DNA from: Moniliella sp. 'wahieum'
Taxonomy: Eukaryota
NCBI GenBank assembly: GCA_003971905.1
Contig: RSEE01000125.1
Span: 1 to 64,000, forward strand
Length of the DNA: 64,000 bases
Direction of reading: 5' to 3'
Both the position numbers and the translations under genes were made by a program. Positions 7,186 through 61,198 of the stretch are shown one piece after another; positions within the stretch are counted from its first letter, which is position 1; the number at the start of each line of letters is the position of its first letter. The notes below the pieces were generated by a model. The model was not told the DNA's origin. It saw only the letters and a program-made list of their open reading frames with translations, and made no database searches.

Positions 7186-7356
7186 TCACCGTGTGCGCCG
7201 CGCCACCGCGGCAGGTGAGACGCTAGCCAAGCCGGTCCGGCGCTCCTGCCCTGTCCTGCCCCACCCACCCCATCCCTCCTCCCCCTCCTCTTTCTCTTGG
7301 TGCGTATTTCCCCTGCCAACTGCCGCAAGTGGGCCGGACTAACCAGCGCAGAGCAG

Positions 7357-7977
7357 ATGGCAACTGTGCAGACGATTCCCAAGGAGGCCGCCGCGGTGGC
7401 TGCGCCCAAGGGGGCGGTGCTGCTGTTTGGCAAGTACGATGTGCAGGAAGTGGAGGTGAAAGACTTGTCGCTGCAGGACTACATTGCGCTGCGGAACGCG
7501 GTCTATGTCCCGCACACGGCCGGGCGGTACGCGTCCAAGGCGTTCAAGAAGGCGTCGATGCCGATTGTAGAGCGGCTGGTGGATGCACTGATGATGAATG
7601 GGAGGAACAATGGCAAGAAGATCATGGCCGTTCGCATTGTGGCGCACGCGTTTGAGATCATCTCGCTCTTGACGGACCAGAACCCGATCCAAGTGTTGGT
7701 GGATGCGGTGATCAACACGGGGCCCAGGGAAGACTCGACGCGGATCGGGTCGGGGGGTACAGTGCGGCGGCAAGCGGTGGACGTGTCGCCGCTGCGGAGG
7801 GTCAACCAAGCCATCTCGCTCTTGACCATTGGCACACGCGAATCCGCGTTCCGCAATGTCAAATCCATCTCGGAATGCCTGGCCGATGAGCTGATCAACG
7901 CCGCCAAGGGCTCCTCCAACTCGTACGCCATCAAGAAGAAGGACGAGCTGGAGCGGGTGGCCAAGAGCAACCGGTGA
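7357..7977 (+). CDS. RPS5: 40S ribosomal protein S5 (uS7)
   Basis: [66 protein letters not shown] and a [14 protein letters not shown] end. Probable 5'UTR intron GTGAGA(7215)..ACTAAC..CAG ends just before the ATG. Confidence 0.97.
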
Positions 7978-9534: not shown

Positions 9535-10560
9535 ATGGATCTTCGTGTAGGAGGCAAGTTCCGCATCGGCAAGAAGATTGGTTCGGGCTCGTTTGGTGAC
9601 ATCTACCTCGGCATCAACATCATTTCCGGTGAGGAGGTGGCCATCAAGCTCGAGTCGATCAAGGCCAGGCACCCGCAGCTGGAGTACGAGGCGAAGGTGT
9701 ACAAGTCCTTGGCTGGCGGCGTGGGTGTGTCGTTTGTGCGCTGGTTTGGCCAAGAGTGCGACTACAATGCTATGGTCATCGATCTGCTGGGCCCATCCCT
9801 GGAAGATCTGTTTAACTTCTGCCACCGCAAATTCAGCCTCAAGACTGTCCTTCTCCTCGCCGACCAAATGATCTCGCGCATCGAGTACATCCACTCGCGC
9901 CACTTTATTCACCGTGACATTAAGCCCGACAACTTCCTCATGGGTATTGGCAAGCGCGGGAACCAGGTCAACATTATCGACTTCGGTCTGGCCAAGAAAT
10001 ACCGTGACCCCAAGTCCCACCTCCACATCCCTTACCGTGAGAACAAGAACCTCACGGGTACCGCCCGTTACACCTCGATCAACACCCATCTTGGTGTCGA
10101 GCAGTCCCGCCGGGATGACCTCGAGTCGCTCGGGTATGTCCTGATGTACTTCCTCCGCGGCAGCCTTCCGTGGCAGGGACTCAAGGCGGCAACCAAGAAG
10201 CAGAAGTACGACCGGATCATGGAGAAGAAAATGACCACCCCCACGGAACTTCTTTGCCGTGGCTTCCCCTCGGAGACGGCAGTGTACCTCAACTACTGCC
10301 GCTCGCTTCGCTTTGACGACAAGCCCGACTACAGCTATCTCCGCAAACTGTTCCGTGACCTGTTTGTGCGGGAGGAGTACCAGTACGACTATGTGTTTGA
10401 CTGGTCCATTCAACAGCAGCGCAGCAAGGACGACCGTCGCGCTGCCCCGCGCGCCGACCCTGCTGCCCCGCTCCCTCGCCGCCGTCCGCTGATGGACGAG
10501 GCTGCGCATGCGTCGCGCCGCCCGGAGAATGGCCCTTTTGACCGCCCCGAGTACCTGTGA
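9535..10560 (+). CDS. HRR25: Casein kinase I (Hrr25/Hhp1, CK1 delta/epsilon type), intronless CDS
   Basis: [67 protein letters not shown] and LPWQGLKA in one intact ORF. Probable 5'UTR intron 9096(GTACGT)-9485(CAG). Confidence 0.95.
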
Positions 10561-13399: not shown

Positions 13400-14168
13400 G
13401 CAGACATGCACATCGGCAGCACATTGGCGCAACTTGAGGCTTATCAAGCCCAAGCCTGAGGTTCTCCAGCAACGGATCCTTCCCGTTGTGATGCACTACA
13501 GGTAGACCATCCGTCCTTTTGACGGTGCGGTTTTCAGCAATGGCCTTGGAGAAATGTCTACCCTCGAGTTGAGTTAGGCCCCACTTCATGGAAACGATGA
13601 TCTCCTGCCCCCTGCAAACTTGTAGCGGACACGGTGCAAGACTTCCAGCACCGCCGCCTGTGTGTTGTTGTCCTTGGAGAGGATAGAAAGTAGAGACCTG
13701 TCCATATTGACATGTTGAAGACATGTTGACATGAGAGCCACACCACAGGCCGTATGGCTTGCCCCATAATGCATGGTGCATACTGGTTTGCAGTGGAGGA
13801 GCACCGACACACGAGAGCATCTTGTTGATTCGGATCACGTGGAACGGGTGCACACGGATGCGCAAGTGTGGAAGGCATCTTTGCTGGCCGTCTTAAGCTT
13901 GAAGCTTGAAGGCGCTTGAGACCACAGGTATTTTTGTGGTGCAGATTCGCGCTGCCTCGAGCGCTTACTTCGGAAGTGATCTACTAGCGCTCATCGACAT
14001 CACACACAAGGTGGGAACAAAAGGAAAATCTTCAAGCACGTTTGCGGCCAAGTCAAAAATACGATTTTAATTGGGATCGCGGATTCGCCGGCCGTGGTTG
14101 TACCGCGATTTGGGAAAGGGCTTGTTTTGTACAGTAGCGATGGAAGCGGGCTGTGGGCGACGACTCAT
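13400..14168 (-). pseudogene. RPL10: Decayed, near full-length 60S ribosomal protein L10 (uL16) pseudogene
   Basis: Starts ATG AGT CGT CGC (MSRRP). Recognisable segments NKPFPKSRYN, RIFDL, ALEAARIC, KDAFH, RIRVHPFHVIRINKMLSC and WGKPYG. Many substitutions and multi-base insertions exceed the simple indel noise seen in neighbouring real genes. Confidence 0.85.
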
Positions 14169-16234: not shown

Positions 16235-16415
16235 GATAATCTCCTCCCATTTCCAAACTCTTCGTCCCCGGGCGTCTCGCTCCTTCTTCTTTGTTCTTCT
16301 CCTCTTCGCGTCATGTCCTCTCCTCTTGCTTCCTCCCCAGGAACGATTGCTACATCCCTTGCCCTAGTCTCGACTCTGGTCTCTCTCGTCTTAGGCCTTA
16401 TCCCCGACTGTGATA
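16235..16415. mobile_element. Diverged solo LTR, copy 1 of 3
   Basis: Clear similarity to 26277-26457 and 32467-32649 (ctcccatttcca...acgattgctacatcccttg.cctagtctcgactctggtctc...ccccgactgtga). Left terminus eroded. Confidence 0.7.
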
Positions 16416-17599: not shown

Positions 17600-20322
17600 C
17601 CTTCGTTCCGCCGACGTGTACCCTTCCTTTTTGACCAGTATTGCAAATAAGAGGCACATAATGATCAAGCTGATCCAGCTAATAAGCTAGGCGGTGAACT
17701 TTTTGACTTGAGTATAGAAAAGAAACATACAGTTGCGGGAGGGTCAGGAGAGATCCCCACAATCTGCATCAACAACCCTTTTTTATTGGAGTTGGATTAT
17801 GCCATGGCGCACCCTGCCCTTCCTGGTGGACAGGGGTGGGGCGTGCAACACATTGCATTTCGGTCATCATGTGCTGCATCATGCATCATGACCATGCGCG
17901 GTTGGTCATCTGCGTGGCCGTTGAGAAAATGCGCATTATACCACTTAGCGGTTATACTTCCCAAACGTGGATATATGGACGTGAGCAAAGGGAGACTACA
18001 GACAGGCCGGTGAAAACGTATTGGGCCAGGACTCGCTGCTATCCTTCGTGGGGCAAACGCATCGTCTGAACAAGCTTCATCCCTTGTGCGAGCGACAGTG
18101 TGTACCGCGTTGGAAAAGAAGATAGCAATGCAAAATAGTATGTTAAGGCATCCAAGAGAAGGTAAGAATCCACCGGCACCAAAAGCTGGATCCAGCAACA
18201 CAGTGATCATGGCCCATATTGCCCAGTTTCTGACCAGCAACAGACGCAAAAAGCGTTGGCCGGTGGAGCAGACGGTATACCCTTTCAGAGTGCGGATGAG
18301 TGTAAGTGCTTTCCGGTAATCTCTGTGGTTGGTTCATTCCTAATTCGCCGCAGTTCCAGCAAAAGCTGCGCGTACCGATGCCCCCCGTATAGATTGGACG
18401 GTGGGATGGGTCAGCGCAGATGGGGAATAGGTATTACCGGCAGATCACATTCAAGTAACCCTGCCATGCAAGACACCACTGATGGAGCATCGTTCTTGGT
18501 GCACAGGAGTGGGCGCAATGCTTTTCTTCTTGAGGGTGGTATAGAAGGCGAGACTGGTAAAACAGAAAACGGTCGCGATGTGCAGGGAAGGTGAGGGGTT
18601 GCTTAAACGAAGGTGCTGACCTGGAGAAAGAAGGGTGGTCGCGAGAGTAAGCGACATCAGTCTGGAAGAGGTAGAGCCTTCAATCCTCTGGACGGGGTGG
18701 TGAAGGGGGAGGGGGAGGGGAAAGGGAAAGGGAGGAGGAGGAGACTGCAGCTATTAAGGAAAGCTTGAGTGGAGTGAGGAAACATATGGTATGCGATTTT
18801 GGATTATATGCATGAGGTGCGAGTGTGAAAAGACCAACAAGGCATATTGAACTCAGGAAAAGAGAATGGATAGATGGAAACAGGATCAGGAGCAGGCCAT
18901 GCCGGTTCTGGTCGCCAAAAGTCTCGCATTGGCTCTTCAGTTGGGAGATGAGGGCCCAGGAAAGGTACAGTGAGAGGTGGGGTCACCGCACCTCCATTCA
19001 GGGAAGGCCAAAGGGCAGGCTTGAGGGATTCATTGCCCCCGCACGAAGTGGTGGGGGTATTAGAGAAAAAGAGCGATGCCGGGGGGTCGGTGAAGGACTC
19101 GGTGCAGCTTGAGGCAGTGGTCGGTGAATCGAGAGACGGAACCCCTCCCAAAGGGACGGATAAGGGAAAGACGAAAGATGGGTCTGGAACAAAGGTTGCA
19201 AGAAAGAGCAGAAAGGCCCTGGGTCGGAGGCCAAGGCGCCTCGGTGGAGAGGTGAAGGTTGAGTCCTCTTGCTCCTCATCAGGCAAGGCCTGCACCAGCC
19301 CTGACCCACACAGGACTTGTGAAGAGGGGCGGGCATATGCTGTGCCGGTAATGTTCGGGAGGGAGAGACGAGGTTTGAGAGACATGCTAATATCCTTCCA
19401 TTCGAAGCCGAGGGGCTGGTGCGGGTTTCTTGTGGGTAGCTCCTCGCCTACCGTGATGGGGAGGGGCCCAAGAACGGCATGTGTACTTTTGCTTGAGCCT
19501 GGGGACATCGCAGTGCTGCCACTAGACAAGAGGGGTGGCTTGTGCGGGGTCAGGGTGGGTACTGCGGCGGAGTGAAGGTGAGGCTGAGGGGTGTGGTCTG
19601 GCCCGAGTCGGGGGCAGAGTTTGGAGTGAGACTAGGCGCGACCGAGGGGAGACCAAGGAGATGCATGAAGGCTGGGCTGCAGTCGTCGTCGTACAAGTTG
19701 TGTCGGCAGGACCGGGGGAGTCAAGCCATTTCTCCTCTACCCCACTCGACGCACCCGTGGCAAGACCCGAATGCGGCGGGGAGTGCGGACGGGAAGGGGA
19801 ATGCCCAAGGGGCGTGGAAGACAACGTTGAATCGAGCTCGGGGCTGTAGGGGCAGGGCGCGGGGGCAGGGAATGCCGGCCCTGGGAGCGGATGCGTTGGC
19901 GGTCGTAGGTGCAAGGCTTGTCGGGCTGGGACACCTTACACCTCTCGCACGGCCGCCTCCGTCGCAGCGGACCTTGGCGCGGGCGCAGGCATCGCAGGCC
20001 TGGAGATGCGGAGCAGGCAGAGCGCTCGCGGGTTGACATGGTGCGCAGGTTCAGGTGCCGTCTCTTTTCCTGGTCGACATGCATGCGGAGATGGCGCTCG
20101 AGGACATCCTTGCGGCCAAACCGCTTGGAGCAGACGCTGCAGCCAAACGGGAGGGTGGGAGCGTGCACAGCCTGGTGGCGGGCGAGGTAATCGGGGCGCT
20201 GGAAGACCTTGTGGCAGGTGGGGCAGACAGGGGTGACGCGTGCCGGCGGCGCGGGGCAGCGCGCCTAGCACCCGCACGCCGTGGTGCTTGGCGGGGGTGG
20301 CGGCGGTGGGGACGGGGGACAT
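17600..20322 (-). CDS. Fungal transcription factor with two C2H2 fingers followed by a Zn(II)2Cys6 cluster; 3' end uncertain
   Basis: CPTCHKVFQRPDYLARHQAVH and CSVCSKRFGRKDVLERHLRMH, then a frameshifted ACSA..LRC..RPCERCK..PCTY cluster. Ser/Pro-rich coding-like sequence continues to about 17.6 kb. Confidence 0.8.
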
Positions 20323-20499: not shown

Positions 20500-23400
20500 C
20501 ATTCTGAGGTCTGAGATCTGACGCGCTGGCGTCTGATCTGAGACCAAGTGCCCTTCCGGCCCCTGGGCGGGGGCACTGTCGGAAATGCACCGGCTGCCAA
20601 AACGAGACTGCGGCGACTGGCGAATGCGAACGCACCCTGCGACGCCCAGTTAGAGGCGGGAAGATTGTTATTGAGCGGGTGCGCTGGGCCTGGGCAGCAT
20701 TGTTTCCGGACGGACTCACGTTTGCTCAGTACTATGTACCCCGTACCCACTGAGTACTGAACGTACTGAGTACTGATTCAGTACTGGGGGCTGCGGGCTG
20801 GGCCTCAGCCTGAGGACAACATGTCTGGGCGTTCACATGCTCACATGTTCACCACTAGCAAAAGAGTTTTGGGTGCCATCGATGATCAACGTTCAACGTT
20901 CTACCTTCGACGTTCAGCTAGTCCCTATTCAACGTACCATGTACCAACGTACTCTACGTTAACTCCTGCCTTCATTTTAGTCACTAGTCACTAGTCACTC
21001 CCACCCATCCGAACGAGACGGCAGATGGACAGCTGTCACGCATGTCACGGACCTGGCACCGCAGAAGGCAATTATACGGGTAGCGATTATCCGGTAATAC
21101 ATCCCAGTACCTCTACTACCTGTGTCCAGGGTTGGATCCAGTACGCAAAACATGTGTGAGTACACACCAGAGAGGGTACGATGAGTAGGCTGCACCACTG
21201 CCACAGTGCAATGAGTGCTGATTGATACTGAGGCCTGAGGGGTCAGTCCGATGATTTGAAAAGTTGATATATACGGGAGCTGCGGATCAGGCTGTGTTCT
21301 GAGAAGGTTACACGTTACGACGTCGTCTTCAGGGAGGCGTGGCTATAATAGCCACTTCCTAATACTCGTACTAAAAAGTCGGAATGACCAGTGACTTGAC
21401 TCGTGATTCTCGTGGGCACCAAAACAGGGACAGCTGGGAATACGGATGGCGACGGAATTCGTATCTGGGGCGGTGCCTTGCAGTGCCCGTCCTCTTTCAA
21501 CCCCGGCACATAGGATGCATCACGCGTCACGAATGCCCCCTCTCTATTAAGTGGTGACTAGGTGACTAGTGACTGTGATTAGTGACTGTCTTCAATCAGT
21601 GACTCGACTGGTTCAAGACTCAAGCTTCAAGCGCCCAAGCGTCAGCGCTGCTCAGACCTCACGCGAGTGACGAGCTGCACTCCCTAGTCACTTGCACTTG
21701 CTCAGCGGATCAGCGCTGAGGCTCAGCGGCTCAGCGGGCGCAGCATGTCATAGATTTTAAGGTCCTTCAAGGTCTCCAAGCTTCAGATCTATCTCAGATC
21801 TCAGGATAGCTGCCGAGAAACAGGCCACATAGGTTGGTGACCGGTGAAGCTGGAGGCCCAAATCGTCGGAATGTGGCTTGAGGAGCTTGAGGGACTGCGG
21901 TAGGGACCCGCGCGTCAGGGTGCCGGGACGCCCGACACGCGACAGGTTTCTCTGAAATGATCCAGGTGATCAGTGACCGGTGATCTCTGATCATCGATCC
22001 GAGATCATCGATCAATGTTCAACGATTAATTATTTCGATTCAATATTCATCCGATGGGAGGAAAGAAAAACGGGTGGTTATATTCTCCGGTCTTGGCCTT
22101 ACCGGTTCCCAGTTCCGGGCTATATCGTGGTGTTCAGTGAACTTCAACGTGCAACGGACGTTGACGTTGATCGTTGAACGTAGGTTGAACGATGATCGTT
22201 GACGCGTTGACGGAAGTGTCGGATATCTACGTAAGCGCTAAGCCTCTTAGATATTATACTTCTTCCTCTGCGATCTGATATCTGACATTGTTGACACGTT
22301 GACAATATTGACCTGGTGCATGATAGAAGCCTGAGGCGGCTCGACGGCACGTTACCTTGATGCGTGAGCGCGTGAGCATAGCCTGGGTTAGGTGGCTGGC
22401 GGAACAACACCAACGCGGCGCGCGAGGAAGAAGGGAGAAGGGAGAGGCAAGAGACAGGGAAGAACATTGAAAATTTTGAGTGAAGGGAACCCAGCTACTT
22501 TTATACCAATCCTGTTGGTCGGCTCGGCACGGCGCTGCTGGTCGAAGAGGAGGTTTTGGGACCGGCCTATACTGGCTAGCAGAGTGATGGCAGCGAGAAT
22601 GCCTTGCCCGATGGGCTGGAGGCAAACATGTAAACGTTAACGGGGTGTGAATGGCAAAAAAAAGCCCCCAACGGATACTGGTGACGCGCGGTGACGTATC
22701 GTAATCGAGTAATCCCCAGCGGCCTCAGCGCCTCAGCAGGCCCATCGACCTCATCGGCTTTATCGATCAAAAAATGGTTAATGACCATAAGGTGATAACC
22801 TCGTGGTGGTCACACGCTTGTCTACCGTTGTACCTTATGCATTACACCACATGCATTTTTGGTGTGGAGCAAAGGCGACATGTCCGATTTCAGAAGCTCA
22901 AGCCTCCAACGAGAGGGCTCGCATGCACACAGATCAAAAGAAGCACTCACAGAGCAGCAACAGTACGATCATTAGCATGTTTAAGTTAACCACGTTTACG
23001 TTTCCGGGCCGAAGTAATTGCGCACAGGCATGTTGTGATCGTGATCCTTCACTGGTTGTGTTCTGGCAATCGTTTCTCAATGGCGTGCCTGTCCTACACA
23101 GGGCGTCTATAGCTGCGCCTACGGGAGAGAAAGGAAGAATGATTAATGAAGGGTCGTTGTCGCAGGGTTCTCATGTGCAGGCGACAGGCTGCAGTGTCAA
23201 CGGGACAACACGCACCAGACGATGCATGAAGCTGTAAGCTTTAAGCTTCAATCTCAAGCGTCAAGCCTTCTGGCGCAGCAGGGCGCAGCCAAGCCCTGCT
23301 GAGCCCCACAACCTCACCATAACGCGTAACGCGCGTAGGTGCCCTTCCTGTGGTCCGAACAGGGTGGGCTTGGTGATCGTGATCCAGTACACGTGACGCA

Positions 23401-25560
23401 TGATGTATGATAATCGATGATTCGATGATATGCAGGATGCTTTAGCACTAGCGGTGACCGGTGACTGGTGACATGGAACATGGGACAGGCGGGAGAGATC
23501 CAGCGCTGAGAGACAGACCCTGGCCTGGCAGTCCGCAGCCAAGCGCAGGCTATAGGCACCCGGCTCCCCCGCCCGAGCAGGCCGAGCGCAGCAAGGCGCA
23601 GCCTGCAGGGCACAAGCACCCAGTCTATTTGTGTATAGGTGTACATACGTCTGCACATACACCATGGGCTGCACTCGTACGATTCGCCATACATACCAAC
23701 GTGTACTAGGTACTATTAATGAGTAGTTTTAACGTTTTTGGCTTTTGCATTTAACGTTGTGAATAACGTTAATGCCATGCACATTCACTAACACTCGAAC
23801 GGGCCTCCAGTACGCCAGTGTGTGCTGCGACTCCGGAGAACCAAGTCTCAGTGTGTCTGACCTGTGCCCGTCGTCCGAACGCACACTGCCCATCCGCCCG
23901 AGGGGGATGCTGTTGGCTAAATTGGTTGTCTCATATCTCGGAGCAGACGCAGGAAGACGTTTTCGTGGGCGCGAGGGGAGAGGGTTACGTACGTTACCGG
24001 GGTTACCGGTTCCGGTTACCGGTTATGCAGTACGTTGCACATGGATGATCGATTGGTATCGGTCATGCATGTAATGCATGATGGATGTCGATGATCGATG
24101 ATTAATGACTAACCGATTATCGATTAAGTAGCTTGAAGCTGGAAGGGGAGCCGAAAGGGCACAGAACGTATGACATGTGACATGTGACATGTGACATTGA
24201 CGTGCGACATGTGACATGTGACATGCGACATGGGACCGGTGACCCGTTACCTGTCATGCCCTTGGCACGTGACGCGTGACTAGCTTGACTGTCCCATGGG
24301 CGCGTAGACTACAGGCGTCCAAAGTGTCCGAGTGCCTAAGTGCATAAGCACCAAGCGCCAAGCCCCATCGTAAGAGTTAGAACCAGCATTTTTTCCCCAA
24401 TCCTATGGGCTCAAATACCTTAAGTCTCATGTATCACGCGCGACCTGCGGTTTCCCCCGCATTGTAGGTTCTGACGCGTGACGACTGAAGACGCGGAGGC
24501 CTGAGGGCCTCAGTACTGAGACTCAGTGCGACTGGTGTGTTGCAGGAAGCACCGGGGAACCTGCCGCTCAAAGAAGCCTCAGCGAGGGCTGTGAAATTTG
24601 AAAGACCAGAAAAGAGTAGGCAGTTGAACGTTGAACGTTGACTAACGATTTCAAGGTATAAAAAGGGAGATATATTCACGCATCGCTGCTAGAGTGCGAC
24701 TTGGGAGCACTCGGCGATCCTATGGTTCAGCTGCCAAGGCGTGAAGGCAAAGTGGTGAGCCGCATCCGTCTTCCAGCAACGTCTCATTGCGAAGAGCAGC
24801 AGGCCAAGAAGAAGTGTACCTTTAGACAAGGCGTGAAGCTTGAAGCTTGAAGGCAAAGTATAGTGAGCGCGAGTCTTCAGGCAACGTCTGAAAGGAAGGA
24901 GAGACAGGAGAGACAGAGGAGCGGCTTTTTGCGAAGATGTATAGGGGGTGCGCATCCTGCGATCGGAACTCTTCCTCCCGCCCAGGAGAGCGTCACCGAT
25001 CAACTTGAGGGTCGTGCAGGAGAACCCTAGCACTATACCACCCAATAATAGCATGGCACGTACATCGGATGGTATACATAGGTGGATAGGAATATTCCAG
25101 CCTACCAGAAGCAAGGGATATCGGAAGAAGTGAGCCGTTATGCATTAACCAGGCTCTTGCGCTACGCCGCTGGTCCAATGTAATGGCATCCAAATAGTGA
25201 GCACGCTCACTATACGTAGTATTTTTTCGTATTTTTAGGTTGTTCTCAAGTTGGGATGGGAAGCGTGTTCCTTGAAGCTTGAAGCTTGAAGTGTTCGCGT
25301 ATTCCCGGGTCACCGGTCAATGTCGATGTGAGATCTGATCGCTAGTCTGAGCGCTCTGGTCGATCTGAATCCTCAGCGCGTCAGCAGGCAGACTCTACTT
25401 GTCGTGAGAGTCTGGTTGGAGAGCACTACGATTAATCAGGGGTTTGATTGTTCCACATTTAGGGCCTTTACGGCCTAAGGCCTAAGGCCTCTATAAGGGC
25501 TGCAGCTTGTTGATGTGTGATGCACGATGCGTGATGCATGATGCATGATGCATGATGCAG
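20500..25560. repeat. Dense field of (TNA + 4-bp palindrome)n heptamer microsatellites
   Basis: TGAGTAC (~20750), TCAACGT (~20886), TCACTAG (~20981), TGAGGCC (~21229), TCAGATC (~21794), TAAGCGC (~22232), TAACGCG (~23320), TTACCGG (~24000), TGACATG (~24171), TGAACGT (~24625), TGAAGCT (~24834, ~25273), TAAGGCC (~25476), TGATGCA (~25532). Confidence 0.9.
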
Positions 25561-26276
25561 ATAATACAGGCGGTGGGAAGAGCGAGTGAGTCACGCGTCT
25601 ACTGAGAGTTTTGTGTTTCGACACATCGATGCATCCCCGCGATTACTTCTCCATCTTCAGCGCCTCTTTTGCTTATTAAAGAGCTTCGGCTGATTAAGCT
25701 GATTCAGCTCCAAGCGGGGCAGGCTGTATGCATCGACTCCTGCCGCGACAGCGCTCCGTCCAGAGCGACCCGTTGGCCACACCCGCTCTCGCTCTACGGA
25801 TTACCGGTATCATACTCATCAGCCCTCCGCGTAGCCTCTTCTTCCGATGCACGCCACTGGTTGCTGTGCCTCAACGCATCTCACACAGTAAGGTGTCATC
25901 GCTATTGTGTGCTACCATGTGCTTCTTGGCAGAAGAGACGTTAGTAACGCGTACCGCGGCGATGCTACAAAGAAAGGTTATATAGAAGGCGCTCGGCCGA
26001 AAGAGCCAACAGCGCAGCTGTGGGTCCTGAAACAGCAGTTGAGGCCCTTTCGACTTTACTCGCACGCTCATCGAAATCAGGCATTCATGGCGCTCATAAT
26101 GCTCATAGCGCATCCATAGTGTGTTTCTCCGGCCTCCGGCCTTTCAGCAGGCTCATTGTCTCATGCATACTTGTGTATATACTGTGCATATGATGCTTGG
26201 ATGACAGTTTTGCCAAGCTGTTAGGAGGTGTCTGGAGGAATAGGGGAACATGCTCTGTTGAACGTTGAACGTAGTC

Positions 26277-26457
26277 TGTCATAGTTTGGCTGATCTCGCT
26301 CCCATTTCCAATTTCTTCGTCTCGAGCATCTCGCTCCTTCCCTGTTCCTTCCACTTCGCACCATGTCCTCTGTTCTTGCTTCTTCCCCACGAACGACTGC
26401 TACACCCCTTGGCCTAGTCTGATCCTGGTCTCCCTCGCCTTAGCCCCGACTGTGACA
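26277..26457. mobile_element. Solo LTR, copy 2 of 3, with a perfect 5-bp target site duplication
   Basis: Begins TGTCATAG and ends CTGTGACA (TG..CA inverted termini). Flanked by TAGTC at 26272-26276 and 26458-26462. Confidence 0.9.
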
Positions 26458-26899: not shown

Positions 26900-29800
26900 C
26901 AACCCAGGAGCCTATCGAAGCCCATAGCTCTAGCTCTCCTTGGCTCTTGAATGCCATCTTCATCCCTCATCGCCAGCATCGCTAGCTAGGCCTGTGACAC
27001 CATCTCGAGTCTTATTTTCTCCATCAGCATACCTTTTCGAGATACTGCCATGCATGGCTTGACTGTTTTGATCCCTCTATTCCAAAAGTTCTCTGCCTCG
27101 CTCCTAACTGAGAGACTTACTCTGTTTTTTCCGTCTCTCTCCATGTCTCCTCTCTGCTCTAGTAGCTTCTCCTTTACGCACGATTGATCCACCCTCCACA
27201 CTCGGGTCTCGGCTCTGGTCCCATTAGCCTTGGCCTCCACCGGCTGCGATATTATCGGTCGTCATAATACCATTAGACCAGAGATGTCTGCGACCCCCAG
27301 GCCCCTCGATCCATTGGGTGCACAACCCTAGCGCGCCGTACGCCAGCACGCGTATTTCGGTCCCCTGCGACCCCCTTCCAATCTTTTGTTCGAGCTCCTG
27401 CCCAACCTTCCGTTCGACACTAGCCGACGCTCCGTTCGATGACGATGGAAAGAGTGGTACCTCCCAACTAACATCTCTGTGACCTCGCGGGGCGCTCCGT
27501 CCTTTTACTAGCGCGCACCTGCGGTTCCTATACGGGCCTGCCGCCGAGGTGGCGGGCTTGGGCCTTGCGGTCGCCCAGCGCCAGGTCGAAGAAGCCTGCA
27601 GAGCTGCCGGAACCTCATCAGAATTCGGGTCCGCCTTTATGCCTAGGAGGACCAGCACTGCGCGTTCCGGACGGATCAGGACACCAAGCACCATAATCGT
27701 CGCCTCCGCTATGACAGAAGGAGAGGTGGATAAAAAGGCTCGGCTGACCATTTTCGCAGATGAGATCTAGAGTGGCATCCCGATTGCCTGTGGCCCTCAC
27801 ATCCATCATATGGGCGACGTGGCCCGGATTGACAACTTCATGGACTTCTGTTGCAGAACGAGGTTTTCCCTTGAGTCCAACAGTTCGGCTCGCACTGCGC
27901 GGGTGAAGGCGCCAACCAGGCCCACACGCCAGTATTGACCTGGGTTTCTCTGCCATTCACCGGACGCGTACATCGCGGCCAAGCATCAGCTTCGCCTCTC
28001 TCCTCCCGAGCCCGATCCCAGGCCCATACATCTCAACTCAGCTACCTTCTACGTCGAAGCGGCTCGACCCGCACCAAGCGTCCGTGTTCAAGATGAGTGC
28101 TTTTACACTAGTCGGCTCCGCGAACACCTCTTTGCCAAGTACTCCGCCTTCACCTCGCCTCGTCGCCTACATTATCCCGGCTTTGATGCTGTTTGAGCCG
28201 GCCGTGGTGTCCTACTGCTCGTCGCCCCTCGCGGTCTTTCGCGGTAGTCGTCCACATGCATACTAGCTCCACCTTGCCGTCTCTGCAGTATCCCTCAGGA
28301 TCCTGTGGGCACTGTCTTTTTGATCAAGCTAGGGTCTAGCAGCGTTCGAATGGACCATGGCTTTGACTTGGGTTCACAAATGCTGGCGTCGCACTTTTGG
28401 TTGTGAAAGTGGTCAATGGACGCAGCATGGCGTCGCGTCTGGTGACCCAGCAGGCGTTGGAGGCGTCCATAGCGGTCGATTCCCAAGTCTCGGTGGGATT
28501 TATCCTCGTCTCCCTTCACCATCTCTTACTTCATTTCCGAGTTCCCCCCTTTCTTGAAGACGACGGCAACCCCAGTACCGCCTATCCTTATATTGATAGT
28601 GCACGGCGCAAGGCCCAATGTCCCAGCTAGGTCTCTCTCGTGCCTGCTCCCCCGATCCCTCCACCTCCTTCGCTCCCTTCCTCCTCTGCGCCCCGCCGGC
28701 TCGTGGTATGAATTTTTGCCTCCCAGTCTCTTCCTCCACCCTCGGGCCCGAGCTCTTCCCTGCTTCTGCTGCGACGTGGGGGTCATAGCTTGCCTAGGCT
28801 GGTGCTATGTTGGCTCAGGGGTAAATTAGGCGGGTTCATACCATCATCGCCCGCGCTGCGCCTGCGTCCGCCTTTCCCGCTCCCCTTCTCTGCAATTGGT
28901 GTCCTGTCTCTCCACCCCGGTTCCGCTCTTCGGTTCTCTGGCAACCTCGACCCCGCTCACTGCGGCCAGTAGACTGGCCAACACCTCTCCTGTTGACTGC
29001 ATTGGAGAGTTCCCTGTTCCATCGCACAACAGGCTTTACGAGTGAAGCGTCACTCTCTCACTCCCCCACCCCGCTCCCTCCGCTTTCTCCCTATCATGTC
29101 TTCGGCCTCCGGAAGCTCCAGCGCGGGCTGGTGCAGTTTTCTATCGCTAACCTTACGGCGGCGCTGGTCCCGAAGGGTCTCGCTGTCTCCTCCCCCACGA
29201 ACTGGACCTCGCTCGTCACCCAAGTGATGGTCCAGGACTTCGCAGCCATTCAACTCCCTCCTGACATCTCTTGGAAATCCTACGGGATCATGCCCGGGTT
29301 CTGGGGTGCAATGTACCCGCTCCCACCGATCGGGCTTCCCCCGCCACGCGCCTGGATACCGAGAACTTGACCTGGATGTGGTTAAACGATTTCAAGAGGC
29401 TGATGCGGACAGACCCTCAGTTGATTGAGACTTGCGCGCAAGCGGTTAACAAAAGGCAATGCTGCCCAAGGCGCCTCTCCGACCATCATTCACCTTACGG
29501 TCTGGGAACACCATCTCATCCTTGGCACGGGCACTTTGGGCGACTATCGAACACCCAGAAGATATCTGGCCGACGCTGCGGATAACTGCGATCCTGCACC
29601 GGACCAACATCCTTTTGGGAAAGAGGCAGTTTGAGCTGAGTCTCCTTGGAGGCAAAAAACGAGTTTGGCTAACTTATGTGCTTGGGAAATGACTCCTCCC
29701 TATATAGCGGAGGAGGCTAAGGCCTAAGGACTGTTGGCCCTTCGTCGCGCCTCCTCTCATCTGGACAAGCAGTTCCCCCACCCAGCAGCCCTCCCCCCCC

Positions 29801-30100
29801 GCCTTCCCTCTCGTCCTCATGTGGCGTTCCCTCTTCATCCTCGAGGTTTTTCTAAACAAGCTTTGGCGGGGGGGGCTGTTGTGAGGTGGGTGTGATAGCT
29901 TACCTAGTAGTGGGCTGTGGCGCCATGGCTCAGGGGCACTAGGCCAGTTCATACCATAGCTGGCGCCCCCTTTCCTGTCCTCTCCTTCTCCGTAATTGGC
30001 AGTGTCTATCCACCACCGCCCTGCTCCTCGCTTCACTAGTCACTAGTCACTAGTCACTCGTAACCGGTATAACCTCTTTCCCGCTCAGCGCTCATGCCAT
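26900..30100 (+). mobile_element. Degenerate L1/Tx1-like LINE remnants, apparently two tandem 3' portions
   Basis: Fragments TLGSRLWSH, AGLGL and GCESGQWTQH (zf-RVT-like). A ~200-bp segment is repeated at ~28780-28965 and ~29890-30098 (atagctt.cctag..ggctcagggg..gttcataccat..aattgg). Many stops. Confidence 0.45.
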
Positions 30101-31379
30101 GGCATATTTTGACTATAGTAGTCACCTCCCCTGTAGACTGCGGCGAGGTCGGAGAGTGCCCTGTGATCCCCGGCACGAAACGGCACGAATCGAAGACAAC
30201 CTGTTCTCGAAACTGGAGTATTCTTCCAAATTGGAGAGGTGACAGGGAGGAACCCAATGCTACATGCTACAGTGGATTTGGCCTACCCCGCCGAACACGA
30301 GTTGGTCACCATCTCGTTAGTCGTCGCCGTCGCCGGCGGTCCCGCCTTCATGTTTCCCACTACGAGTTAACGTACCCCAGTACTTCGAGCACCTCAGGGG
30401 CTCCCCTATGCCACTCTCTTTCCCCGGCGAAAATTAGGGGCCACTCCGCTCCTCGTCCATCCTACCGCCGACGATCACATGTCACATGCTACATGTTACA
30501 TGTCACACGCCATTGGCCTATAGTCCCCAACGTCACATCGCCCACTTTTACTCACCCTTAGGCCTTGCCTCTTGTCCAAAATGGCTCGGAGGAGAATATA
30601 GCTTCGGTGTGTATCATAAGAAGGACGGCTTGCGGTGTGCCTCCCTATCACACCCTCGGCTCGGTTAGAACCAAGAACCGTTGCACTTTGAGCTTTAAGC
30701 TTTAAGCTTTACTCTAACCTCTCTTGGGGATCTGCATTGTCGCCAAGTCCGATATCATATATCAGTGGAGCTTATCGCTTGTCCTGTTTTCTCGGTCAAG
30801 AATAAGGCGAAAGGCTGATGTCCAGTACGTCTCGGGGGCGTCGAAGCAGGCCACAAGAACGTAGCAAGAAACGAAAATGCCAACTCAGCACCTGTACCAT
30901 CATGCATGCATCAGCGCCGCCAAGAAAGCTGCGTTGTGGACAAGTTCAACGAGAGGCAACGCACGACGCTTTTGCCCTCCGGCTCGTTGCTTGATAGTAG
31001 ATGACAATGAGTTGAACGCACACATGAGCGTGCACTTTTGGGACGTTTAGAGCTTTTTCTGTCACCATCTTTCCTATATCTTAGAGTATAGGTGGGGGGG
31101 GGGGGGCATTTCCTGAAGATGAGGATCAGGAAAAGGCGCACAGTCCCTACAAAAAAGAATGGCCATACTATGTGATGTCGGTCGGTTTCGGTCCCAGGGA
31201 CGGTTCTCCACCAAGAGAACCACTCTGTATGATAGTGTTTTGCGCCATGGAAGCAGAGCACTCTGTTCGACAGACAATCTTCAACTATATAAGGGGCCAA
31301 ATCGACGGTTGTAATGAACGGAAACGAAGTTAAGAGAGTAGAGCGAAGAACTTAGCGGTGGAAGGAGAACAGGGAAACG

Positions 31380-55801: not shown

Positions 55802-56699
55802 TTCAATTGGGGGGGGGCGGTGTGTAAAACTTTCCCGCCGCTTGAAAGTTTGTCGTCGCCTGCCCTGTGCGCCGGGCGCCGGCGACCGCAGGCGCCGCAC
55901 TGGCCCCGTGCCTGGCCGCACGCGTGCTGCGCCTGGCGCCCTGACACTCGCTCCGCGCGGGTGGGCCACGCACCGCAGGGACGCAGTGTGCGCGGGGGGC
56001 AGGACCACGCCGCACAGGGCAGTGGCCACGTGCAGAGCTTGGGCGTGCCTGCGCGCCGCGGCGCACGGCAGCGCTGTGGCGGGGGGGTTACCGCCGCGCT
56101 GACAAACGCACAGCCGCCCCGTCCCTGCCCGCCGCACGCCGCAGCAGCGCCCTCCTCCTCCTCGGCTGGGGGGGAGTGTGGCCGACACGCTTCCCAGCGC
56201 CTGGGCCTTGGGCCGAGCGCTGCTGAGCTCAGCCGAAGCGGCTTTACGTGGTCCCTCGTCCTCCGCACGCCCGCCCTCGGCACACTAACCCTAAACACCC
56301 CGTATCTCTTCTCTCGTCCTATAGCAGCACACCCAAGGCCAGGCAAACAGACACCCACTCGCTTACCCGTCTCTTCTTCCCCCGACCACACGTCAGATGA
56401 TACCGGCCTGCTCATCCGACGTGTGCTGCTTGCCGGCTGGACGTAGCACGCGTGTTGGATACGGGAATGAGCGAGGAAGACATCCGAGCGATGAGCCATC
56501 TCCATTGAGACGGATCCGTTATAATTCTTTCCAGTGTCCAACCATCTTGCTCGCAGTCTTGGTGGCATAGTACCCTCGCGTCTCGTCAGCGCCACAGTGG
56601 GAAGAAAGAGCCCTGGATGCGTCTATGGTACTTGGCGTTCTTGTCGCATGTTATTCCGCTTGCTCCACTGTAGTCGAAGCAGCTCCTTCTCCCTACATA

Positions 56700-58439: not shown

Positions 58440-60950
58440 TGGCTTAGTGAGGCCTGTGAGGCCCTGAGGCCCCTGAGGCCCTTGAGGCCGCCTGAGCCTG
58501 GTTTTGGTGGATACGCCAAAAGTGGGAGTGAGTGGTTGCTGTTGAGCCTGTGGTGATATATGATAGAGATTGCCCATTGGCAGGATTTGGCTACTGAGTC
58601 TCAATGGAAATGGTTCCTCGCTCGGATGTCAACCACGTTCATCCGTGTCCACACGCGCTACCTAGGGTACGGGACCGCAGATGACGACCATCACAGAAGG
58701 TCCTGATATCTTAGCGACTCCCCTGGTTCCTTAACCTTGGCCTTCCAAGTAACCCCCGCAAGATGAACGGTTCGGTTTAGATGTAGCGTTTCCCTAAACC
58801 GAACCGTTTCTCCTGTCCCCCTTAAGCTCGGTCAATGGCATGGATGCAGTATTATAGAGTGTGTCCTGGGGAGGATATAACGCACAGGTGCAGGGTGGCC
58901 GGTGAAGAGAATGATGATTCTGACAGGTCACGGATACGTGCTCTGTGACATACGATAGGTGTTCTGCATGCCATATGCCCAGCAAGTGTGGGTCACGCGA
59001 GCGTCAGTCGCCTTGCTAGTATAGTCGCTCTCGGTTCAAATTTATGGTACTGAGAGTACTGAGTGCCGGGTATACTCTGATCCGTGGTTCTACCGGGTCC
59101 TACTGGTCGAGATGATCGGATGATCCCTCAGCGTCTACTAAGTACTAATGCCTGTCTATAGAGCAGGATAGTGATTCTCGATTAACAATGCCAATTATCT
59201 ATTGGTAACTGTATAGCGATATCGAGTCGCTTTAGTCACAATGGTCACTATTGGTCACACATCAACGCGTCAGCTATGTATATGGGAGGATGCGGGTACA
59301 GACGAGTGCATTGCGACCATATCAAACTGTACGGAGAAGTTAAAAAAAACGAGAGCTCTGGGAGGCTTTCTAAATGGCCGAGGGGGCGTAACGCGTAACG
59401 TTACGAGAAGGGTGTGGGGAGGAGGACTTCCATCGATATCGAAAAGGCATAATGTGTGTGACTGTTGAGAGCCACGCTCTCACTTGCGAGTTTTTGAGAC
59501 GCTCGGAGGCTCGCCTGCCTCGCCAGTGACTAGTGACTTCTTCCATTCAAACTGAACACATGTATGTGTTGGGCCTCAGGCCTCATATGTCACACCAGCA
59601 CACAGAGATAATCCGGCAATTCTCCAGATGGATCGATAGCTTTTGCTAGCTACATGTGTAGATCGGGTGGGTTGCCACGCTGACAGACTGTCAGATTACA
59701 TGTTACACACACATTCAATATTCATCCCCTGGAACTTCACCGGTTCCCGGCTTCCCCGTCCGCAACCGATAGTATTGTGACTCTTTTTATCGCACCACGC
59801 CGACCCGAGCGACTCAGGGAATATGCTCTGCCATTATGCTGTATGCCACTTACGACCAGAAGCTAGTCACCTCTAAGATCTAATCATTTAATCTTCATGG
59901 ATTTTGGCACATGCGCACATCACCATGTCACAGGTAATATAGGACCCAGCCAGTGTTGGAGTGTGGTGGCATGTGACATGTGACACCACTTGATGTGATG
60001 GCTTTTGATAGATCGGCCATGTCGCTGGTAACCGGATCTGGCTATAGAGTTATCCGCGTCTCGCGCGCTCCAGATTGGTTACCGTCGCGCCTCGTTCCCC
60101 TCTTTCTTCTTCTCCGCGTTGTATTCAAAGTTGGAATAGCGTCAGGCCCAGGAGCTTACAAAAAGCTATCTCTGACTGTTCCCGCTCTGCACAGTGCAAT
60201 CGTCCGTATAGCTTTTGGTAGCGTAGCTACTTCTCACTGTTAAACGTTAACGACGACGGACAACCGCGGTTCTCGGCTCTCTCACCGTGCTCACCCATTG
60301 ATCGCGCGGTGTAGTGCTTTGCCCTGGCTCTCATTCTTTCGGCCAGGGAAGTAGTATCCGCTATCCGGTAGCATACAACACGATCTACACGAAGAACGAA
60401 CATGTAGCCCGTTTTCTATATTGTGGGCTCTCTGAGGCGCGACGGAGATGAAGTATCCACGTCACGCGTCAGGCGCGTCAGGCGCGTCAGGTGCCACGGG
60501 TGACATGGCAGTAACACACTCGCCTGAGGCCTGATCACGCGATCACGCGTCACTTGTTTCTAATTCTCCGACGTGCGCGTGTGCCTGATTGTTCCCAATG
60601 GTGTCAGGCTGTGACATGTGAGATCGGAGTCTCGTATATTTCTCCCATTTGCGCGGCTCTGTCTGCTACCCTCCCCCGTGCTATGGCCACGTTATATGTG
60701 AAACAGCATGATGTTGATACGTTGATAATCGGTCATCGATCATCGATCATCGATAACGTCAAAAACGTGGTAGTTGCGTATACAAGTGTCTGTCAGATGT
60801 GCTGGAGCCGTTCAAAAACGTTCGGTCCGCGGGGCCCAGTTTGCATCTCCACAGCCAGTTTTCTGCCATGCAGGCCTCACGCGCTCACGCCCACGAGAGG
60901 CATGGTCCAACGCATGCATCATCGATCTATTCATCATAATCATTAATCAT
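58440..60950. repeat. Second field of TNA+palindrome heptamer repeats, upstream of the OPT gene
   Basis: TGAGGCC variants (58448-58500), GTACTGA (~59048), TAACGCG (~59389), TGACTAG (~59527), TCAGGCC (~59576), TGACATG (~59974), TCACGCG (~60462, ~60535), TCATCGA x3 (~60733), TCATTAA (~60940). Confidence 0.85.
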
Positions 60951-61198
60951 TGCGACATCGTCCTTCCCCTTTATTAGTCGTGTGGCCAACCTCTGACAAC
61001 GGAGGAGGGGTATGCCCTGGCATGCCGGGCATGGTAGGCAGAGAGGCAAACTGGAGCGCACAGCTCGGCGAGCGCATCGTCATGAGTTTAGTTGGTTGAT
61101 TGGGAGTCTGGGCCCATATCGGGCAATGTGCTCTGTGTCCGGAAGCCGTCGGACTATGGACGACCCACAGTGAAGAGCCAGTCGAAAGCTAGATAGGC

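Follow-up and report, generated by a model that had tools for sequence, protein, structure and literature searches.

We analysed a 64,000-nucleotide window (C125:1-64000) of the 69.5-Mb genome assembly of Moniliella sp. 'wahieum'. Both haplotypes are present in this assembly, ~4% substitutions apart, as the contig pairs C125/C172 and C17/C62; C172 is the second haplotype of the window, with 41,318 aligned bases and 4.1% substitutions. The genes of the window are eukaryotic and intron-poor, and those for RPS5, a casein kinase I-like protein and a histidine kinase (window 7354–7977, 9535–10560 and others) are intronless. Many reading frames in the window are disrupted by indels of one or two bases that are probably assembly errors, and 431 one-base indels were found within 41 kb of alignment between the window and C172. 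At the centre of this study are two forward-strand copies of a dispersed repeat of 220–300 bp with TG...CA ends: copy B (29877–30180, the end being approximate), which carries inserts, and copy A (28767–29031; 265 bp), which does not. Most copies of the repeat have TG..CA-like ends, and a flanking 4-bp duplication was exact in 4 of 22 aligned copies (L003, L007, L011 and L020), had one mismatch in 4 more, and was absent at copy A. A profile search found no retroelement domains between copies A and B. The repeat is most likely a solo LTR that served as a passive substrate of the inserts.

The earlier note on this DNA described three palindrome-creating insertions in copy B relative to copy A. 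The letters of copy B at 30023–30098 are exactly as claimed there, and the copy A string also reads as given, although it occupies 28925–28963 rather than 28925–28965. Sites and footprints are given here without strand. At site 1 (30031–30058), the target CT-TCA-CT is followed by three 7-base units (30038–30058), each consisting of two mirrored bases and TCACT; the allele of copy B has two units instead of three, and both carry an additional TA or TAA. At site 2 (30059–30074), the target is CG-TAA-CC and the insert (30066–30074) comprises a 7-base footprint plus TA (30068–30069). This extra TA, which had been described as part of the insertion, is present in copy B but missing from its allele, where the insert is a clean 7 bases; it is therefore a separate two-base event, a later one, or an assembly error. 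TA duplications were not clearly enriched among clean 2-bp duplications (4 of 51). At site 3 (30083–30096), the target GC-TCA-TG holds a 7-base insert (30088–30094) that is absent from the second haplotype, and the TNA of this site was found only in copies A and B and their alleles.

Copy A, which had served as the ancestral reference, does lack the inserts but is a poor ancestor, since TNA has been lost from it at both site 1 and site 2; the ancestral state is given instead by the repeat family and the second haplotype. Our family comparison contained 26 rows, one without a match and two corresponding to copy B and its allele, leaving 23 other copies. Inserts 1 and 3 were missing from all 23, which contradicts the converse possibility that the family consensus already contains the arrays and that copy A is a deleted state. 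Extra copies at site 2 occurred in 5 of the 23, with differing junction classes, and some of these may share descent. These results confirm that the three inserts are derived and are located in copy B. The CTAG, CCGG and GCGC palindromes are missing from copy A, and the proposal that such palindromes are made de novo held, both in the repeat family and in five haplotype or paralog pairs in which a non-palindromic empty site stands beside a filled one. The accompanying statement that existing palindromes are not expanded needs amending, as they are expanded too and look preferred.

The same arrangement recurs throughout the window. A 12-base motif, xyTNA-rc(xy)-xyTNA, where rc(xy) is the reverse complement of xy, had 102 matches at 63 loci, compared to 0–2 in each of 20 block shuffles. 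When TNA was not imposed, 141 duplications of the form 5+2+5 were found versus 10 expected, with T in the third position in 107 of the 141 and A in the fifth in 106. The 63 loci span 3263–60951, at a density of roughly one scar per kb, and are densest at 20500–26300, 29700–30800 and 58500–61000. None of the 102 matches fell in rough gene blocks, though these blocks hold 408 of 2,413 TNA sites; this absence is expected, since a mutation of this type would shift the reading frame. All 16 xy pairs were used, N followed background among 73 isolated scars, and the only extended target preference at these 73 sites was a mild one for T at −8 and A at +8 (0.38 vs 0.25).

Comparison of haplotypes captured individual events. 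Two de novo +7 footprints, at GG-TGA-AG (21836–21849) and AA-TGA-AG (23138–23151), and one +8 footprint at CG-TAA-TC (22700–22714), in which six target bases occur twice, are present in the window and empty in C172. We also tallied indels in haplotype or paralog pairs whose alignments total 76,930 bases. Of the clean indels, the rule was matched exactly by 9 of the 18 that span 7 bases, 1 of the 10 of 8 bases and 1 of the 4 of 9 bases; the other nine clean 7-base indels were off the rule. With looser flanks, 13 of 35 fitted with at most one mismatch. Among the nine exact 7-base fits, five began at a non-repetitive, non-palindromic empty site, three lay at palindromic sites and one more lengthened an array. 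By size, there were 18 clean indels each at 7 and 6 bp, and 11, 11 and 10 at 4, 5 and 8 bp.

We characterized the junctions in 233,309 bases comprising the window and additional loci, counting both strands at non-palindromic sites (17,765 TNA and 17,538 ANT positions) and with known haplotype duplicates left out. Each junction counted had one whole copy with two mirrored bases before it, and we sorted the junctions by how much of the target the second copy retained. Retention of 4, 5, 6 and 7 bases was seen 32, 172, 34 and 14 times at TNA, compared to 8, 0, 2 and 3 times at ANT, and retention beyond seven target bases was nearly absent (1 and 0). The main class was highly specific, with 172 cases at TNA versus 0, 3 and 6 at control patterns. 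In the +8 class, the extra, sixth base was templated in 34 of 43 cases (p 2e-13); in the +9 class, the sixth and seventh bases were both templated in 14 of 42 (p 1e-7); and one polymorphic +9 allele, with an empty allele beside it, contains two full copies of the 7-mer separated by two mirrored bases. Because these classes and this allele keep further templated target bases, the duplicated unit is a 7-bp sequence centred on TNA, joined by P nucleotides, and the 5-mer that the earlier note took to be duplicated is the usual survivor of trimming. The sharp 7-bp peak predicted in that note exists within the footprint class (172:34:14) but not among all clean indels, where 7 bp ties with 6 bp. The junction palindromes are even 4-mers with no centre base. 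A further class in which the centre base is complemented (24 at TNA, 1 at ANT, symmetric cases being counted twice) suggests hairpin arms of greater length that were joined at T or A. TNA showed no enrichment of plain 7-bp duplications, with 32 cases versus 52 at ANT, and hardly any junction combined P bases of the two flanks (1 and 0).

Events also recur at the same site, as had been proposed. Across 8,854 TNA sites there were 154 doubles, 27 triples, 10 quadruples and one six-mer, so that a second event had occurred in 38 of 192 arrays (20%) compared to a rate of ~2% for first events.

No transposase was found among 131 reading frames of the window and its haplotype. Elsewhere in the assembly, a frame on C17 matched PF02992 (Tnp2) with an E value of 8e-14 (51.7 bits, cut-off 28.6; E 1e-12 in the genome search), and C34 gave a weak match to the same profile. 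In all, we saw only two EnSpm-like loci (C17/C62 and C34) and about a dozen ends. The candidate transposase gene is broken in both haplotypes; a CxxC motif is visible in the C17 frame, and H(3-4)H is not evident by eye. DNA behind this frame recurs at C45, C20, C66 and C93, with C45 carrying the C17 3' region as far as the terminus, and the similarity ends at a terminus that closes with GTG. A 26-base pattern of this terminus occurred 11 times, compared to 0 for the control, and was directly followed by NN-TNA-NN in 10 of 11 occurrences, or at 7 of 8 loci once haplotype pairs were collapsed (chance 0.038 each, p 9e-10), with NN variable. At the eighth locus, on C53, the terminus is followed by two mirrored bases and then a 7-mer, an arrangement that a re-joined flank hairpin would give and for which a point change is also possible. 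The 7 of 8 do not include the ends on C8 and C103, which belong to the family but had been chosen for having TNA; also excluded from the counts are matches on C5, C16, C41 and C42, whose agreement with the terminus covers just 10 bases.

The 7-mers at the terminus were palindromic at 5 of 7 loci, compared to 8% of lone TNA sites, suggesting that the element re-targets its scars. The terminal 7-mer on C17 has one further copy in 9 kb, located 3.9 kb upstream and just before the coding region, where an older scar has it as its second unit; the two 7-mers are probably a target duplication pair. On C40, a 27-base element remnant lies between two units of a scar, and both the C17 and the C40 arrangements fit insertion into earlier scars. 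Orphan element ends of just 15–45 bases stand in host spacer DNA on C40, C31/C113, C53, C75, C8 and C103, which suggests one-sided deletion or incomplete excision; single-end CACTA derivatives have been described in LsC2 (in the section of PMC8195511 concerned).

Scans of all the DNA analysed for inverted ends combined with target duplication returned only arrays matching themselves, and no element was recovered that has inverted ends on both sides and a target copy at each. None of the terminus loci yielded an inverted repeat on the left, at C17 the left end could not be recognised and a deleted relative on C65 gave no alignment there above shuffles, and no ends were found at C34, the second EnSpm-like locus. 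Two candidates for complete elements were rejected: on C5, where an exact 7-mer pair encloses 1.1 kb, the left end falls within a RhoGEF-like frame, whereas on C103, a 5.0-kb interval spans host genes. None of the large indels between haplotypes had both inverted ends and a 7-bp duplication centred on TNA. Searches of proteins of 614–2000 aa and of metagenome contigs, both weak tests, found no relatives of the transposase.

Several other mobile or repeated sequences were observed in and around the window. Relative to an empty site at window 22609–22613, C172 (L041:4437–4583) carries a 145-base insert with a 5-base duplication, in which a tRNA-like piece is discernible by eye and ARAGORN called no gene. 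An empty site at window 14142–14146 corresponds to L040:2255–3153, where 899 bases ending in TGTCAC...GTGACA are inserted with a 5-base duplication, and a ~180-base TG...CA element with a 5-base duplication at window 26277–26457, with relatives near 16289 and 32532, is missing from C172. A 218-base insert without inverted ends (L040:9114–9331; empty at window 17711–17717) has an exact 7-base duplication centred on TAT, not TNA. L040:3306–3815 is a 510-base element with perfect inverted ends and CTTAAG on both sides, as in TTAA-type elements, and related ends occur at window 58748–58794 and in L061, L070 and L094. A 1.4-kb insert between 254-base direct repeats (L039:8998 to L040:391), also present in L048, looks like a miniature LTR element. 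L010:645–1489 contains a near-perfect fold-back of several hundred bases, either an inverted duplication or an assembly artefact, and window 56467–56511 and 58598–58642 form a 45-base inverted repeat, 84% complementary, whose arms are 2.1 kb apart.

The derived state, TNA specificity, junction spectrum, re-hit excess and presence of element ends on the same target were observed directly. From these we consider it very probable that the scars are the footprint of some transposon, and probable that the inserts are empty donor sites of an EnSpm-like cut-and-paste DNA transposon that duplicates 7 bp, targets TNA and revisits its own scars. That the EnSpm/CACTA-like family identified here wrote the scars is a reading we favour with more reserve. 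In the proposed pathway, insertion at xy-TNA-zw with a 7-base stagger would duplicate the 7-mer, a step supported by the element ends and the +9 alleles. On excision, both flanks would be closed off as hairpins precisely where the element ends, in the manner of RAG, a step that we infer from the zero-loop palindromes. A host nuclease would open the hairpin ~2 bases from its tip, yielding y'x'xy. One end would be joined whole and the other after trimming, mostly to the A of TNA, with the self-complementary T-N-A core presumably supplying microhomology; the observed spectrum is a net gain of 7 or, less often, 8 or 9 bases. The resulting scar holds the palindrome xy-TNA-rc(xy), and repeated hits on it, for which the bias is observed, would make heptamer arrays grow. 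A model with a 3-bp duplication fails, as xy lies outside TNA yet is copied. The asymmetry of the junctions, with no enrichment of plain duplications and P bases almost always from one flank, is not predicted by a symmetric model alone.

Known systems share parts of this pattern. Transib and RAG duplicate 5 bp of target. hAT elements, Transib, RAG and Muta1 form the hairpin on the flank, according to the account in PMC5499845, and Artemis is described in PMC2175297 as opening hairpins mainly at +2 to leave a 4-nt palindromic overhang. The likeness to V(D)J, Transib and RAG, one of pattern only, is thus to a flank hairpin opened 2 nt from its tip, giving an even palindrome with, here, mostly two P nucleotides; most V(D)J coding joints lose P bases, whereas the scars keep them nearly always, and on a 7-bp TNA duplication. 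With EnSpm/CACTA elements (the CMCT clade), our candidate shares its PF02992 match, an apparent CxxC motif and a GTG end. The duplication differs: fungal EnSpm elements are reported to duplicate 3 bp and the CMCT clade 2–5 bp (passages in PMC12730594), and 3-bp duplications are likewise given for CACTA elements (PMC3193017 and PMC8195511, in the parts that treat them), whereas here TNA starts two variable bases past the end and the classes reach 7 bases. In the passages of PMC4455052 on duplication length, 7 bp is named just for hAT. Many small intergenic repeats in another basidiomycete, Ustilago maydis, have also been read as scars, with 10-bp repeats suggested as transposon footprints in the relevant part of PMC4081816, compared to 7 bp here. 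We found neither a published rule of this kind nor a 7-bp EnSpm element in a literature search confined to sources other than Repbase and subscription papers.

The same chemistry could have been performed by another enzyme, such as hAT7, Kyakuja or another 7-bp-duplicating or domesticated transposase, with the EnSpm-like ends playing a minor part. Few EnSpm-like copies remain, and both hAT7 and Kyakuja duplicate 7 bp in basidiomycetes, Kyakuja with CA..TG ends without inverted repeats (as summarized in PMC12730594). The resemblance to Ac/Ds and hAT7 extends to target duplication with short palindromic inserts from flank hairpins and to microhomology joining. Ac/Ds palindromes, though, are odd and centred on the complement of the flanking base (in the portion of PMC5873905 that describes them), whereas those observed here are even 4-mers without a centre base. 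Kyakuja, a KDZ element, agrees in its duplication length, ends and basidiomycete hosts, but the end found here belongs to a Tnp2-like element, and it is EnSpm-like ends that sit on the exact target. Profiles for the hAT dimer (PF05699), KDZ (PF18758), Plavaka and DDE_Tnp_4 found no match in the organism's own genome; these are weak tests in a frameshift-rich assembly, and for PF05699 and PF18758 the controls were silent too. We regard a different enzyme as unlikely. Somewhat less likely still is an origin without any transposon visit, in which a TNA-directed nick or break is followed by fold-back and template-switch repair that copies and mirrors neighbouring bases. Such repair would suit the strong asymmetry, with one side whole and the other trimmed, and the lack of enrichment of plain duplications, and scars are far more numerous than elements. 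A loop-free palindrome, though, cannot be primed by fold-back and requires a sealed hairpin, as is established for V(D)J ends; the duplication reaches precisely two bases to the left and right of TNA and no further; and transposon-type ends adjoin the same 7-mer.

Once two units exist, arrays could be lengthened by ordinary slippage during replication or by unequal exchange at short repeats. Slippage builds a microsatellite from a pre-existing tandem unit, but the five empty alleles are non-repetitive, and slippage cannot make mirrored bases at such sites, which refutes it for first events; it also leaves the specificity for TNA over the control patterns unexplained. As an account of the scars it is very improbable. 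We give even less credence to a sequencing or assembly artefact or to selected protein-binding sites. The assembly is rich in one- and two-base indels, as its many one-base differences between haplotypes attest, but many scars are common to both haplotypes and older scars carry substitutions; the use of every xy pair would be needless for a single binding site, and no scar lies in a gene.

In its fullest form, the transposon reading is of an EnSpm/CACTA-like lineage with a 7-base TNA stagger, RAG-like flank hairpins and a preference for its own scar palindromes, leaving about one scar per kb and forming a main source of heptamer microsatellites; to this reading, as a whole, we assign an even chance. 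If true, the genome would contain a sequence-coded mutational engine and a record of CACTA excision chemistry. This chemistry is not known to have been shown in vitro, and the rule described here makes it testable. If the reading is right, the fungus would offer natural records of how hairpins are opened and ends joined, numbering in the tens of thousands by extrapolation to the genome from 63 loci in 64 kb; the range of target duplications in CMCT elements would widen from 2–5 to 7 bp; and EnSpm-like excision would group, by its even hairpins, with RAG and Transib and not with hAT. Microsatellites may, moreover, arise without slippage, and repeat annotators would take such arrays for binding-site grammar.
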